Assembly: GCA_963760795.1 (NCBI GenBank)
Contig: CAVXEP010000016.1
Span: 96,001-160,000, forward strand
DNA from: an uncultured delta proteobacterium
GTDB lineage: Bacteria; Desulfobacterota; Binatia; UBA9968
Length of the DNA stretch: 64,000 nucleotides
Direction: 5' to 3'
Shown here: in pieces, positions 48,586 through 56,869 of the stretch
How positions within the stretch are numbered: position 1 is the first letter of the stretch
Layout: the number at the start of each line of letters is the position of its first letter
Notes under the pieces: model-generated
Told to the model about the DNA's origin: nothing
The model's input: the letters and a program-made list of their open reading frames with translations, nothing else
Database searches by the model: none
Program-made: the position numbers and the translations under genes

Positions 48586-49089
48586 TTACAGTTCCAGCAC
48601 CGCGCCGCATTTTTTGCAGGTAGCTAATTTCGGGTCGGCTTTAAGGGCGGCGGTGGCTTTGTTGACCGCATCGCCCGGATCATCGAAGCGCACATCGGTG
48701 GCGTAAAGATTCGTGCCGCATTTCTCGCAGGGCCAGATAAATCGGTCGATCTCCTCTTTGGACCGGGTTTTTTCTACCACATAGGTCCACGAACCATCGG
48801 CGCGGCGCGGCGAGTGCGGCGTGTTCCTCGGCATGAGAAAAATATCGCCGGCCTTGAGCACCGCCAGCTCATGCTTGTCGTCCTTCAAGTAATGCAGGTT
48901 TAGCTCCCCTTCGAGCTGATAAAATATCTCGTCCCCAGGGTTGATGTGATAGTCCTTGCGCCGGTTCGGCCCGCGCGTAACGAAGGCGATGAAATCAGAG
49001 TCCTGCCAAATCACCCGCCGCTGTCCCCAATCGCCGCGGTTATCGTCGATCCATTTCTGTAGGTTGAACGTCTGTAGGTGAGGAAACAT
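48586..49089 (-). CDS. 3-hydroxyanthranilate 3,4-dioxygenase-like cupin
   Basis: GPNRRKDYH, EIFYQLEG, PHSP, rubredoxin-like CEKC...CKKC. Confidence 0.8.
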   Translation of the reverse strand: MFPHLQTFNLQKWIDDNRGDWGQRRVIWQDSDFIAFVTRGPNRRKDYHINPGDEIFYQLEGELNLHYLKDDKHELAVLKAGDIFLMPRNTPHSPRRADGSWTYVVEKTRSKEEIDRFIWPCEKCGTNLYATDVRFDDPGDAVNKATAALKADPKLATCKKCGAVLEL

Positions 49090-49160
49090 AAAAACCTCCG
49101 GTGGCGCATGGCCAATATAGAATTGCACCGAAGCCGGAATCAAGCTAAATCATGCTGGTC

Positions 49161-49655
49161 ATGGTAATTCGCAGGAAACAGATCGAGATCGACAAGGGCA
49201 TCATCGGCGTGATCTCCGACACCCACGGCCTGGTCAGGCCTGAAGCCATGGCTGCGTTGAAGGGCGTGGAGCTGATCATTCACGGCGGCGATATCGGCAA
49301 GGCTGAAGTCCTAAAATCGCTAAGTCTGATGGCGCCTGTCTGCGCTATCCGTGGAAACAACGACCGTGATAGCTGGGCGAAGAAGCTGCCTGATGTGCTA
49401 AAGCTTCAGATCAATGGCGTCAAGTTTCAGGTCATTCATGATGTCAATGAGCTCGAAAGCGATCCCAGTGCCGCGGGAATTCATGCCGTCATCAGCGGTC
49501 ATTCCCACAAAGCGAGTGTCATCGAGCGCGATGGAGTCTTATTTATCAATCCCGGTAGTGCTGGGCCGAGAAGGTTCAAGCTGCCGGTGACTGTTGGCAA
49601 ATTGAGGCTACGGCATAAGATGGTCGCGGCTGAAATTATCGAATTAAGAATTTAG
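49161..49655 (+). CDS. YfcE-family metallophosphoesterase
   Basis: ISDTHG, HGGD, RGNND, GHSH, NPGS. Confidence 0.9.
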   Translation: MVIRRKQIEIDKGIIGVISDTHGLVRPEAMAALKGVELIIHGGDIGKAEVLKSLSLMAPVCAIRGNNDRDSWAKKLPDVLKLQINGVKFQVIHDVNELESDPSAAGIHAVISGHSHKASVIERDGVLFINPGSAGPRRFKLPVTVGKLRLRHKMVAAEIIELRI

Positions 49656-49666
49656 CATTGGATTCG

Positions 49667-49695
49667 TTGACAATCGGTTGATCGCACGTTAGAAA
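49667..49695 (+). promoter_or_regulatory. Putative sigma-70 promoter of the pyr operon
   Basis: TTGACA-N17-TAGAAA just upstream of the PyrR loop. Confidence 0.6.
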
Positions 49696-49703
49696 TTCTC
49701 ATA

Positions 49704-49812
49704 CCTTTTAAACCGATCCTGTGAGGTCGGCAAAGGGCCAAATGACGGAACTTAATTTAGAATATTGCTACGCTCAAAGACCCACTCGGTGATGCCGGGC
49801 GGGTCTTTTTTT
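49704..49812 (+). promoter_or_regulatory. PyrR-binding RNA leader (binding loop plus terminator)
   Basis: CCTTTTAAACCGATCCTGTGAGGTCGGCAAAGG matches the CUUUAA / UCCNGNGAGG PyrR consensus; hairpin AGACCC...GGGTCT plus T-run at 49776-49812. Confidence 0.9.
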
Positions 49813-50373
49813 ATGGCTGAAGAGAAGAAAATTTTACTCGAACGCGACGATATCGGCCGGATGGTCAGCCGGATGGCCCATGAGATCGTTGAGAAGGCCG
49901 CTACTCCAGCTGAGTTGGCTTTGATCGGCATTCGTTCGCGCGGGGTGCATCTGGCGCGGCGGATTGCTCGCAAGATCGGCGAGATTGCCAACGTCGATCC
50001 AGTGGTGGGGGTGATCGATGTTACGCCTTACCGGGATGACAAGTCGCAGGAGCGGCCGATGCCGGCAGTGGGGGCTTTCGAGGTGCAGGTCGCGGTCGAT
50101 GACCGGACGGTGGTGTTGGTCGACGATGTGATTTACCGGGGGCGGACGATTCGTGCGGCGATGGAGGCGGTGGAGCGCTTGGGGCAGCCGAAGCGAATTC
50201 TTGTCGCGGCGCTGATCGATCGCGGTGACCGTGAGCTGCCGATTCGTGCCGATATTGTCGGCAAGAATATTGAAGTTGGCGATCGCCAGCGGGTCAATGT
50301 CTTGCTCGATGAGGCCGACGGCACAGATCAAGTGATTCTGACGAATTGGCAGGGGAGAACCCGGACTGAATAG
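49813..50373 (+). CDS. pyrR: PyrR pyrimidine attenuation regulator
   Basis: [54 protein letters not shown]. Confidence 0.92.
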   Translation: MAEEKKILLERDDIGRMVSRMAHEIVEKAATPAELALIGIRSRGVHLARRIARKIGEIANVDPVVGVIDVTPYRDDKSQERPMPAVGAFEVQVAVDDRTVVLVDDVIYRGRTIRAAMEAVERLGQPKRILVAALIDRGDRELPIRADIVGKNIEVGDRQRVNVLLDEADGTDQVILTNWQGRTRTE

Positions 50374-50385
50374 CCGCATATGCCC

Positions 50386-50444
50386 GTGATCCCGAGCGAA
50401 TGCGAGGGATCTAAGAGAGATTTCTCCCAGGGGTCGAAATGACA
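50386..50444. repeat. Intergenic palindromic repeat between pyrR and pyrB
   Basis: GTGATCCCGAGCGAATGCGAGGGATCT...AGATTTCTCCCAGGGGTCGAAATGAC; does not resemble a PyrR loop. Confidence 0.55.
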
Positions 50445-50503
50445 ACAATTCCAACCTTGGCGTGGGATCGACGGTTAACGAGTAGCCCTAGAAGTAAATC
50501 ACA

Positions 50504-52456
50504 ATGCGCTGCCTGATTTCCATTGCCGACCTGACCAACGATGAGATCGAGGAGATCTTTGCGCTGGCCGATAGCGCCGACAAGCTGCGCGCCGACAGGG
50601 TCGGCGCCGGGCAGATCATGGCGACGTTGTTCTACGAACCGAGCACGCGCACTCGGCTGTCGTTCGAATCGGCCATGCAGCGCCTCGGCGGCTCGGTGAT
50701 CTCCTGCTCGGATATGAAAGCTTCCTCGACGGCCAAAGGCGAGACCGTGGCCGACACGGCCAAGGTGGTGTCGAGCTACGCCGATGTTTTGGTCGTGCGT
50801 CATTATTGGGACGGCGCGGTGCAGGCGATGGCCGAGCACGCCGATGTGCCGGTGATCAACGCCGGCGACGGCGGTCACGAGCATCCGACCCAGACGCTGT
50901 GCGATCTTTATACGCTGCGCAAGGAGAAGGGCGATCTCAAAGGCTTGACGGTAGTCGTGTGCGGCGATCTCAAGAACGGCCGGACGATCCATTCTTTGGT
51001 TTACGCGCTGGCGCGCTTCGGCGCTAACGTAGTGACCCTGGCCGCTAACGGCATGGAGCTGCCGCAGTATGTGATCGAGCGGTTGGAGCGCGAGTACGAT
51101 TACGGCTTTGCGCCGGTGGCGTCGGGAGACTTGAATTCCGTCGTTACCGAAACCGACGCTTTATATTTAACCCCGAAGCAACCGCATCAGCTGGCGCTCT
51201 ACACCCAGGTGGACAAGGTCATCCAATCCCAGCTGAGCACCCTGGCGACCGGCCTGCGCTATGACGCTTTTTACATGACCCGGAAACAGAAAGAGCGGAT
51301 GAAAGAGGGCACCGCCAACGGCAACTATCCGACCATCGGTCCGGAGTTTCTCCAGGAAAAGCGTTTTCAGGACACCGTGGTGATGCATCCGCTGCCGCGT
51401 GTCGATGAACTGTCGCCGGAGCTCGACAAGGACCGGCGCGGCATCTATTTCAAACAGGCCGCTTACGGTGTGCCGGTGCGCATGGCGCTGCTCGAATTTC
51501 TGTTCCGGCGCAATCGCGCGCAGCAGCGTGCGACGAATATGGCCAACCGTTCCTATCGTAGCCCTGAACCCATCGGCCCCAAGTGCCATAATGCCAACTG
51601 CATTACGGTGAAAGAGCCGGCATCGACGCAGCGGCGCTTTCGCATCTATTTCGCCGAGGATATAGGCGCGCTGATTCTCGGCTGCGACTACTGCGATCAT
51701 CGCTTCAAAGTTGACTACGTCGGCAATATTAAAGCCAAACGCTATTCGTCCTTCGACGCCACGCTCAGCGAGACGTTGCGCGATTGGTGGGACAAGGGCG
51801 AGCTCGCCTTGTTCGACTCGATCAAAGAAGCCGAAGAGTTGGGGTACGAGCCGACGAGAAGTAGCGCGCAACGGATACTCATGTCCGAGACTGAGATCGA
51901 GACTGCGCTTGCCGAGATGAGCCGGCAGATTGTGCGCGACTGCCGCGATCCCGACCGGTTGTTGATTCTCGGCGTGCGCAGTGTTGGCTCGCTCCTGGCC
52001 CAACGCATTGCCAATGCAATCGCAGCGCAGCGCAACCGCAGACCGGAGCTGGGCGAGATCGAAATCTACGGCTCCGGCGATGAACTCCGGCGCATCGGCC
52101 CCAGCGATCCAGATCTCGGACCGCCCAGTCTGAAAGATCGCGAAGTGGTTCTAGTCGACGACGTGATTTTTACCGGCCGCACGGTGAAAAGCGCGTTGAG
52201 CATCATATTTCGCTCCGGCCGGCCACAGTCGGTGCGCTTAGCCGTGCTTGTCGACCGCGGCCACCGCGAGGTGCCGGTGAAGCCTAATTACGTCGGTAAA
52301 AATATTCCGAGCTCTGAAAAAGACCGCGTGCGCGTGCGCTTGCGCGGCGAAGATAGTGAGGCGGCCGACCGCGTAGTAATCTATTCAATTATGAGTCCCG
52401 CGGTGAGTGCGCAGCCAGCATCAACCTCCAGCCGGGACAAGGCGGCGAACCGATAA
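50504..52456 (+). CDS. pyrB: Aspartate carbamoyltransferase fused to a PyrI-like Zn domain and a PyrR-like PRTase domain
   Basis: [30 protein letters not shown]; then CHNANCIT...CDYC; then [28 protein letters not shown], all in one 650-aa ORF. Confidence 0.9.
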
Positions 52457-52460
52457 TTTC

Positions 52461-53624
52461 ATGAAAGCGATTTTAGCCTTAGCGGACGGCAAATTTTTTA
52501 GCGGTGTAGGCTTCGGCGCCGAAGGCGAAGCCGTTGGCGAAGTGGTTTTCAACACCAGCATGACCGGCTACCAAGAGATTCTCACCGACCCGTCTTATGA
52601 AGGCCAGTTGGTGGCGATGACCTATCCACAGATCGGTAACGTCGGGGTTAATCTTGAAGACGTCGAGTCGCGCCGGCCGTTCATGCGCGGCTTCATCGTT
52701 AAAGATTACACCGCCGAGCCGAGCAACTGGCGCGCCAGCCAGCCGCTGCATGAATATATGCAGGCCAATGGCATTGTCGGCATCTACGGCATCGATACCC
52801 GCGCGCTGGTGCGCCACCTGCGCGATCACGGAGCGCAAGACGGCATTATCTCGACAGGAGCGGCGAGTGCTGAAGAGTTGGCCGCCAAAGCCAAAGCTTC
52901 CCCGGGCCTTGTCGGCCAAGATCTGGTTAAAAATGTTACATGCCACGAGCCGTACGACTGGAATGAAGGCATGTGGCGACTAGTGGGCGGCTACAAGCGG
53001 CGCGATGGCGGCAGCGCTGCCAAGCGCAGCCGCAAGGGCAGCTTCACCGCGCCAAAATACTTCGTCATCGCCTACGACTATGGCATCAAATATAACATCC
53101 TGCGCAATCTCGCCGAGTCGGGCTGCCAGGTGCGCGTGGTGCCGGCGTCGATGCCGGCGAGCGAGGTGCTGGCGCTGAATCCCGATGGAATCTTTCTTTC
53201 CAACGGTCCCGGCGATCCCGACGCGGTTCCCTATGCGAAAGAAAACGTCCAACAGCTGATTGGCAAGAAACCGATCTTCGGCATTTGCCTGGGGCATCAA
53301 ATATTAGGTTTGGCCCTGGGCGGCAACACTTACAAACTCAAGTTCGGCCATCATGGCGGCAACCAGCCGGTGATGGATCTGACCACGCGCAAAGTCGAGA
53401 TCACGTCGCAGAATCATGGCTTCGCCGTCGATGCCGATTCGCTGAGCGGTGCCGCGCAACTGACTCACTTAAATCTCAACGACAACACGGTGGAAGGATT
53501 GGCGCATCGCGAGCTGCCGATCTTTTCCGTGCAGTATCATCCCGAGTCCTCGCCCGGCCCCCATGACGCGAACTATTTGTTTAAACGCTTTACCGACCTG
53601 ATGGCGCAGCACCGAGGCTCGTAG
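52461..53624 (+). CDS. carA: Carbamoyl-phosphate synthase small subunit
   Basis: [40 protein letters not shown]. Confidence 0.97.
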
Positions 53625-53629
53625 CATCC

Positions 53630-56869
<3,240 letters not shown>

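Follow-up and report, generated by a model that had tools for sequence, protein, structure and literature searches.

A 64,000-nucleotide stretch of DNA from an uncultured soil bacterium, a delta proteobacterium of the Binatia (contig CAVXEP010000016.1, positions 96,001 to 160,000; hereafter the window) carries on its forward strand a compact pyr operon in which two proteins of the PyrR family are encoded side by side. The operon consists of a promoter-like box, a leader, a free pyrR gene (49813–50373, 186 aa), a spacer, an open reading frame (ORF) of 650 amino acids (50504–52456), carA, and carB. The 650-residue protein joins the catalytic part of aspartate transcarbamoylase (ATCase), a zinc domain of the PyrI type, a connector, and a second, tethered PyrR-like domain. 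We posit, with a probability of roughly 0.55, that the two PyrR-family proteins split pyrimidine control between them, the free protein acting on the genes and the tethered one on the enzyme. The textbook example of an allosteric enzyme is ATCase, and that of an RNA-binding attenuator in the same pathway is PyrR. In Binatia the two are joined, and the system can be described as an interweaving of two known ones, class B ATCase and attenuation by PyrR. A PyrR-type domain appears to have taken the place of the nucleotide-binding domain of PyrI, and the remaining free PyrR has altered its own pocket only in the lineages that carry the fusion. Should the tethered domain prove to be a sensor, it would represent a further mode of ATCase regulation, likely by uridine and guanosine nucleotides rather than by CTP and ATP, and a natural case in which a single ligand-binding fold serves control at the level of RNA as well as of the enzyme. 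The public annotation of the fusion gene reads only "ATCase catalytic subunit", and we found no description of a fused PyrB–PyrI zinc–PyrR system in the literature searched.

The catalytic part (PyrB) comprises residues 1–335 of the fused protein (50504–51508), scores 168.7 bits with the Pfam model OTCace_N and 72.7 bits with OTCace, and exceeds the TIGR00670 cut-off (291 bits against 237); no second true pyrB was found in the genome, an assembly that is 88.9% complete with 6.15% contamination. It is followed by the zinc domain (residues 359–404; 51578–51715), which scores 27.6 bits with Pfam PyrI_C (cut-off 23.4; match at residues 360–404), is present in all 44 relatives, and contains four cysteines (Cys361, Cys366, Cys394, and Cys397) that are invariant in 50 sequences. 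A profile of the zinc and connector region from 44 sequences matches residues 108–150 of E. coli PyrI (E = 2.8e-5). The connector itself (residues 405–452; 51716–51859) is defined by its conservation in the 44 sequences, which share a motif that starts with a tryptophan and has invariant W, F, K, A, Y, and P residues; its only outside likeness is a weak one to Ada_Zn_binding, seen in 6 of the 44 members with a best E value of 0.026. The PyrR-like phosphoribosyltransferase (PRTase) domain (residues 453–632; 51860–52399) passes the NCBIfam PyrR equivalog NF003549 across residues 455–627 (149.6 bits against a cut-off of 138). Within the same assembly we found no PyrI allosteric domain (PF01948), either in the fused protein or elsewhere, and no second PyrI_C domain.

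The fused protein resembles class B ATCase (PyrB6–PyrI6, in E. coli and archaea) in its catalytic PyrB and its four-cysteine PyrI zinc domain. It differs from class B ATCase in that no CTP/ATP-binding PyrI domain was found with it in the genome, that the zinc domain is fused to the C terminus of PyrB, that the presumed sensor follows the zinc domain instead of preceding it and has a PyrR/PRTase fold, and that PyrB carries an extra insertion of ~39 aa. The insertion (~51143–51259; residues ~214–252) lies in the aspartate domain, includes the highly conserved sequence PxQPHQLALxTQVD, and is common to all fused lineages compared, including the divergent P0140 and P0151, and absent from two non-fused relatives of the same class. 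In E. coli this neighborhood holds the 240s loop of the allosteric transition. The insertion is a candidate site at which the new regulatory module may dock. Fused PyrB–PyrI proteins (NCBIfam NF009916) likewise carry catalytic and regulatory parts on one chain; however, the window protein is not a member of that family (94.2 bits against a cut-off of 800) and lacks the PyrI N-domain. The simplest reading of this architecture is that a PyrR-type domain replaced the PyrI allosteric domain as the regulatory module.

The fusion is not peculiar to the window. At E ≤ 1e-3 the fused protein has 714 relatives, and among the best 120 nearly all of the full-length ones are ~650 aa long and have the same domains. 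We collected 80 fusion loci from species genomes and five from the window's class, which after removal of three duplicates (L036 = L082, L038 = L121, and L039 = L116) leave 82 distinct loci; those from species genomes are mostly labeled Candidatus Binatia, Binataceae, or "Deltaproteobacteria" metagenome-assembled genomes, with a few odd labels. In at least 73 of these loci the gene immediately preceding the fusion is a free pyrR, the remainder being contig ends or classifier misses (L046 and L113). When 401 genomes of the phylum were sampled, the zinc and connector part was covered in only seven genomes among the 150 best matches listed, all of them in the window's class and distributed over three families.

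Alignment of both copies with solved PyrR chains, in which the canonical motifs read LTRIAHEI (the RNA-binding helix), YRDD (the flexible loop), DDVLYTGRT (the nucleotide loop), and DRGHRELPIRAD, confirms all eight motif readings that a sequence-only reading of this DNA had offered for the free and fused copies. The free PyrR has SRMAHEI, YRDD, DDVIYRGRT, and DRGDRE, and the fused domain has AEMSRQI, YGSGDE, DDVIFTGRT, and DRGHRE. In the 82 fused copies the histidine of DRGHRE and the arginine that follows it are invariant, the loop residue is threonine (66) or serine (16), and the helix histidine is absent throughout, with helix threonine in only two, so that the signature of the RNA-binding helix is missing. 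The aromatic-RDD loop is likewise missing: the three RDD positions hold their canonical residues in 1, 51, and 13 copies, respectively, and a full RDD was read in none of the 85 copies before deduplication. The acidic pair, the threonine or serine, the final threonine, and DRGHR are nevertheless retained in 82 of 82 copies, down to ~47% full-length identity. These patterns suggest that the fused domain retains a pocket and does not bind RNA, and we think that it serves as the nucleotide sensor of ATCase.

The free copies show the reciprocal state. Among 74 at distinct fusion loci, the histidine of DRGHRE is retained in one (L110) and lost in 73, where it is replaced by alanine (33), aspartate (16), glutamate (13), serine (8), glutamine (2), or glycine (1). 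The same holds closer to the window: among 121 free copies (the window's and its 120 closest homologs, 70–100% identical) the nucleotide loop has arginine and the helix has its histidine in all, and the DRGxRE position is never histidine (A 91, D 17, S 7, E 4, N 1, C 1). This loop arginine is not general, since in the 74-locus set the residue is arginine in 43 and threonine in 31, and the change from threonine to arginine is confined to part of the class. Most of the substitutions are thus conserved among relatives: the exchange of the histidine between the two copies, which holds across the class, and the lost helix of the fused copy, but the loop residue only in part. The observation that the fused domain had lost the helix signature and kept its loop threonine and DRGHRE histidine agrees with all 82 copies once serine is allowed in the loop. 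These states are unusual in the family at large, in which 115 diverse representatives have threonine or serine in the loop in 111 cases and arginine in one, the histidine in 102, and an aromatic-RDD motif in 110.

The loss of the histidine from the free copy accompanies the tethered copy. Beside the fusion it is lost in 73 of 74 free copies, whereas in genomes of the same class that lack the fusion PyrR is fully canonical in seven of seven (helix histidine, YRDD, DDVL(Y/F)TGRT, and DRGHRELPIR), behind leaders of the same design. Ordinary PyrR-like proteins have this histidine in 60 of 63 sequences with the helix histidine (only three lack it) and in 42 of 52 sequences without it. Because it is conserved both with and without the RNA-binding histidine, the swapped residue points to the nucleotide or catalytic side of the protein rather than to RNA contact. 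The uracil-site residues of M. tuberculosis PyrR listed in a review on 5-FU (PMC10970046) could not be mapped onto this histidine.

Complementary loss of residues in adjacent genes admits another explanation, in which the free PyrR cannot sense nucleotides, and forms mixed oligomers with the tethered domain, so that the ligand state of the enzyme would decide how much of it is free to bind the leader. Trigger enzymes are metabolic enzymes that also control gene expression, by physically binding a regulator or its nucleic-acid target; the present system shares with them the physical relation and joint encoding of a pathway enzyme and a gene regulator. In its fullest form this explanation makes ATCase itself such an enzyme: nucleotide-dependent mixed dimers would tie its allosteric state to attenuation of its own operon, the tethered histidine and the free RNA surface being the halves of one sensor, and the first committed enzyme of the pathway would directly set the expression of the genes that encode it. 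The swap of the histidine (kept in 82 of 82 fused, lost in 73 of 74 free) and the association of its loss with the fusion speak for such an arrangement, as does the closeness of pyrR to the fused pyrB, which are separated by at most 53 nt at 66 of 73 related loci. In addition, PyrR binds RNA as a dimer according to the review PMC7430163, so that a mixed dimer would carry only half an RNA surface. Adjacency of pyrR and pyrB is ordinary, however, being seen within the stretch covered in two of the seven non-fused relatives of the class, and the pocket of the free copy does not look like that of a protein that has ceased to sense. Its RDD positions and the arginine of GRT are each conserved in 74 of 74 copies, DDV is invariant in the alignments, and the loop arginine, where it occurs, is itself conserved rather than decaying. 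Moreover, PurF from the same genome (TIGR01134, 537.7 bits) reads DDSIVRGTT, with arginine at the same position of its phosphoribosyl pyrophosphate (PRPP) loop. The case for lost sensing is weak because the pocket is conserved and the cell's own PurF carries the same arginine, and the description of the free copy as a pure RNA binder is not supported. With no variation in the acidic pair, in GRT, or in RDD, and with the loop arginine fixed and not variable, the free PyrR probably retains nucleotide sensing; only the histidine position, with its six replacing residues, looks relaxed.

The phylogeny adds to the doubt. An IQ-TREE phylogeny of 88 PyrR-type domains, built by quick search, unites the fused domains of Binatia in one clade (SH-like approximate likelihood ratio test support 98), adjoined by more divergent fused proteins from metagenome lineages (P0140, P0148, and P0151; support 87–89, not starred) that keep RDD; the free copies lie opposite, interspersed with ordinary PyrRs. 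Branching orders inside the free and fused clades are parallel. Separate clades with parallel branching argue that the pair is old and co-inherited and not the product of a recent duplication; the proposed subfunctionalization is not supported in the strict sense, and a shared interface between the two copies is therefore not a given. On balance we regard a free PyrR that depends on the enzyme-bound copy for its ligand state as improbable, and we would give similarly long odds to the trigger-enzyme mechanism built upon it.

We return to the reading in which the two proteins act separately, and to the free copy as the regulator of the genes. The free PyrR exceeds the equivalog cut-off (192.7 bits against 138), and its departures from the canonical PRTase pocket, an aromatic-T-G-R-T loop together with DRGHRE, are YRGRT and DRGDRE. 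Savacool and Switzer are said to have identified in 2002 the residues Thr18, His22, Arg141, and Arg146 of B. subtilis PyrR as RNA contacts; the window's free PyrR has serine, histidine, arginine, and arginine at these positions, which we count as agreement. Across the 74 free copies the DRGxRELPIR segment retains the arginine after the histidine position in 73, and its second arginine is arginine in 67 and lysine in seven; the helix histidine is present in 62 and replaced by methionine in ten, all of the Binataceae type. The free copy resembles the Bacillus PyrR, a bifunctional attenuator and uracil phosphoribosyltransferase (UPRTase), in passing the equivalog and in having a cognate leader, and the fused domain in passing the cut-off. 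They differ from it in that the free copy has arginine for the loop threonine and has lost the histidine of DRGHRE, that the fused copy has neither the helix signature nor the RDD loop and is not a separate protein, and that the genome contains three PyrR-family genes.

The leader ahead of pyrR (49701–49812) matches the Rfam model RF00515 just above its gathering score (55.4 bits against 54), with the middle hairpin of the model aligning poorly. It is preceded by a putative promoter (49667–49695; TTGACA, a 17-nt spacer, and TAGAAA), and related leaders show a TTGAC-type box at the same place. The lower stem pairs CCUUU (49704–49708) with AAAGG (49732–49736), the upper stem pairs 49713–49718 with 49725–49730, and a terminator at 49778–49806 is followed by a T-run up to 49812. 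The design of CCUUU(U)AA, hairpin, AAAGG, and T-run recurs at 72 of the 73 loci whose upstream sequence spans 200 nt or more, three contigs being counted twice; leaders were counted by this hairpin-frame pattern, as the stricter TCC.G.GAGG matched 15 of 76, most loops ending in GAGA. In 70 aligned leaders the upper stem is 98.9% paired with double-sided changes in five of its six pairs, the terminator has double-sided changes in ten of eleven pairs, and the covariation score was reached by none of 500 shuffles. The free PyrR is predicted to be the RNA-binding attenuator copy because it is encoded behind this conserved PyrR-binding leader, and the view that it keeps the RNA-binding signature is well supported by a leader that is both conserved and covarying. 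A second RF00515 match in the genome (29.4 bits, on another contig) is merely a terminator behind an unrelated gene.

Directly after the PyrR hairpin lies a start codon, ATG in at least 90% of the 70 leaders, which in the window opens a putative leader ORF of 16 codons (49742–49792). The AAAGG that forms the 3′ arm of the hairpin is Shine–Dalgarno-like, and the TGA of the ORF falls inside the terminator loop. The leader ORF stops 5–30 nt ahead of the T-run in 41 of 68 leaders and reads through the terminator in the others; it usually ends RP(T/S)R, and in Binataceae it reads through towards pyrR. Pyr leaders of the Thermus type link the binding of PyrR to the translation of a leader peptide. 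The window leader resembles that type in that its PyrR hairpin overlaps the putative ribosome-binding site of a short ORF running into the terminator, and it differs from leaders of the Bacillus kind in that no antiterminator hairpin is evident; no paper on a translation-coupled pyr leader of the Thermus type was found in the literature searched. Because the AAAGG arm resembles a ribosome-binding site, we infer that attenuation is coupled to leader translation. Free PyrR would bind the hairpin at 49704–49736, the 3′ arm of which would be the ribosome-binding site of the 16-codon ORF. With PyrR bound, the leader would remain untranslated, the terminator (49778–49812 with its T-run) would form, and the genes from pyrR through the fused pyrB to carA and carB would be switched off; with PyrR unbound, a ribosome would enter the terminator and transcription would read through. 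The pocket of the free PyrR is remodeled and apparently still under selection, and a phosphorylated ligand probably still acts on the protein, although its specificity may have changed. At the Binataceae loci (L111–L124 and L038–L040) the helix reads KRIAMEI, with methionine for histidine, and the leader loop is GCUACUGAGAUAGC rather than GAUCCUGYGAGAUC; the pairing of KRIAMEI with GCUACUGAGAUAGC fits ongoing co-adaptation of protein and RNA.

On the enzyme side, the tethered domain would stand in for the missing PyrI allosteric domain, having given up the helix residues for RNA binding and the catalytic flexible loop and kept the ribose-phosphate loop and DRGHR. Its most likely ligands are uridine and/or guanosine nucleotides, and it would signal the nucleotide state to the catalytic trimer, possibly by a PyrR-like dimerization that bridges two trimers. 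UMP and UTP promote and GMP and GTP oppose the binding of PyrR to RNA according to the review PMC7430163, and because of these opposite actions the balance of uridine and guanosine nucleotides is a natural guess for the effector pair. The free and tethered copies would work in parallel and not as a single complex. In this account the domain order, the motifs with their conservation, the structure of the leader, and the co-occurrence of the fusion with histidine loss are observed, whereas ligand binding, allostery, oligomeric form, and the logic of attenuation are inferred.

Several observations weigh against this division of labor. The arginine of GRT, present in 56 of the 82 fused copies, is tryptophan (16), lysine (8), or methionine (2) in the other 26, and the flexible loop is gone; because this pocket is not strictly canonical, the fused domain can be credited with ligand binding only tentatively. 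The fused copies keep one of the two arginines reported as RNA contacts in 82 of 82 and have lysine or arginine at the other in 81 of 82 (K 57, R 24, and T in one), and their mean net charge is +1.6 against −1.0 for the free copies, so the loss of an RNA surface is not visible in bulk charge. The three fusion-bearing families may share one origin, and the link between fusion and histidine loss may amount to a single event. That the free and fused copies are not sisters in the tree counts on the same side, as does a full-length AlphaFold model (50 sequences; mean predicted local distance difference test score 61.6, predicted template modeling score 0.45) too poor to judge how the domains pack.

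The variable arginine and the lost loop would suit a tethered domain that is a scaffold only, replacing the dimerizing role of the PyrI allosteric domain and sensing no ligand, beside a free PyrR that is an ordinary UMP-responsive attenuator whose substitutions are drift. The varied replacement of the free-copy histidine is what relaxed constraint would produce, and PyrR proteins are dimers and tetramers, judging from the titles of structure entries for ancestral and engineered PyrRs. Conservation of the acidic pair, the threonine or serine, the final threonine, and DRGHR in every fused copy is, however, more than a scaffold requires, and drift would not be expected to fix the free-copy arginine in 121 of 121 close homologs. 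We consider a purely structural role unlikely.

A different role for the PyrR-like sequences is suggested by what the genomes lack. We found no Upp-type UPRTase (PF14681) above the cut-off in the window's genome, at the completeness given above, or in five fusion-bearing relatives (G291, G365, G317, G204, and G263; 97–100% complete), the borderline matches being the PyrR genes themselves. The tethered domain, or a third PyrR-family gene, might then be the cell's UPRTase, and the free copy might have shed catalytic residues that it no longer needed. The third gene lies on another contig of the same genome (G000:C13:95202-95729; L002 1480–2031), encodes 183 aa (NF003549, 186 bits) with the motifs FAREMAKQ, YRDD, DDVLNTGRT, and DRGGRE, and adjoins a carbamoyl-amidohydrolase-like ORF and a solute-binding protein; no PyrR leader was found at its locus. 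The loop threonine and histidine of the fused copy and the YRDD and DDVLNTGRT of the third paralog are compatible with such an enzyme. Type I PRTases use the RDD flexible loop in catalysis, and its loss from the fused copies, of which only one in 82 keeps even the first-position arginine, argues against the tethered domain in this role. The third paralog was seen in the window's genome only, among the seven fusion-bearing genomes searched, and the contamination of that assembly means that it could be either the cell's UPRTase or a sequence from a contaminant contig. A salvage function as the explanation of the locus seems to us highly improbable.

Beyond the regulatory genes, the operon continues with putative carA (~52461–53624) and carB (53630–56869), together spanning 52461–56869 and named by eye from their ORF sequences. 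The spacer between the free pyrR and the 650-residue ORF is 130 nt long and carries an inserted dispersed repeat of ~72 nt (50376–50456; strand not assigned), which was recognized by genome-wide sequence matches: 37 including the window copy, the other 36 lying on both strands at 75–97% identity. Metatranscriptome contigs from four runs in three studies (150–380 nt, 90–99% identity) match segments of the pyrR and pyrB sequences, of the connector and the PyrR-like domain, and of the carA junction, and the spacer repeat alone is matched by many more. Contigs of this kind are no proof of a transcript, of where it begins or ends, or of attenuation, and nothing follows from the parts left uncovered. 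Directly upstream of the operon lie genes for a 3-hydroxyanthranilate 3,4-dioxygenase (48586–49143, reverse strand; PF06052, 108.9 bits) and a Metallophos_2 phosphoesterase (49152–49655, forward strand; 112.1 bits), and some relatives have a similar phosphoesterase C terminus ahead of the leader. In the window's family carA follows the fused pyrB directly; in Binataceae and family f8 (L037 and L038; families f8 and f6) an extra ORF of ~430–540 aa lies between the two, which, judged by its position, may be pyrC.

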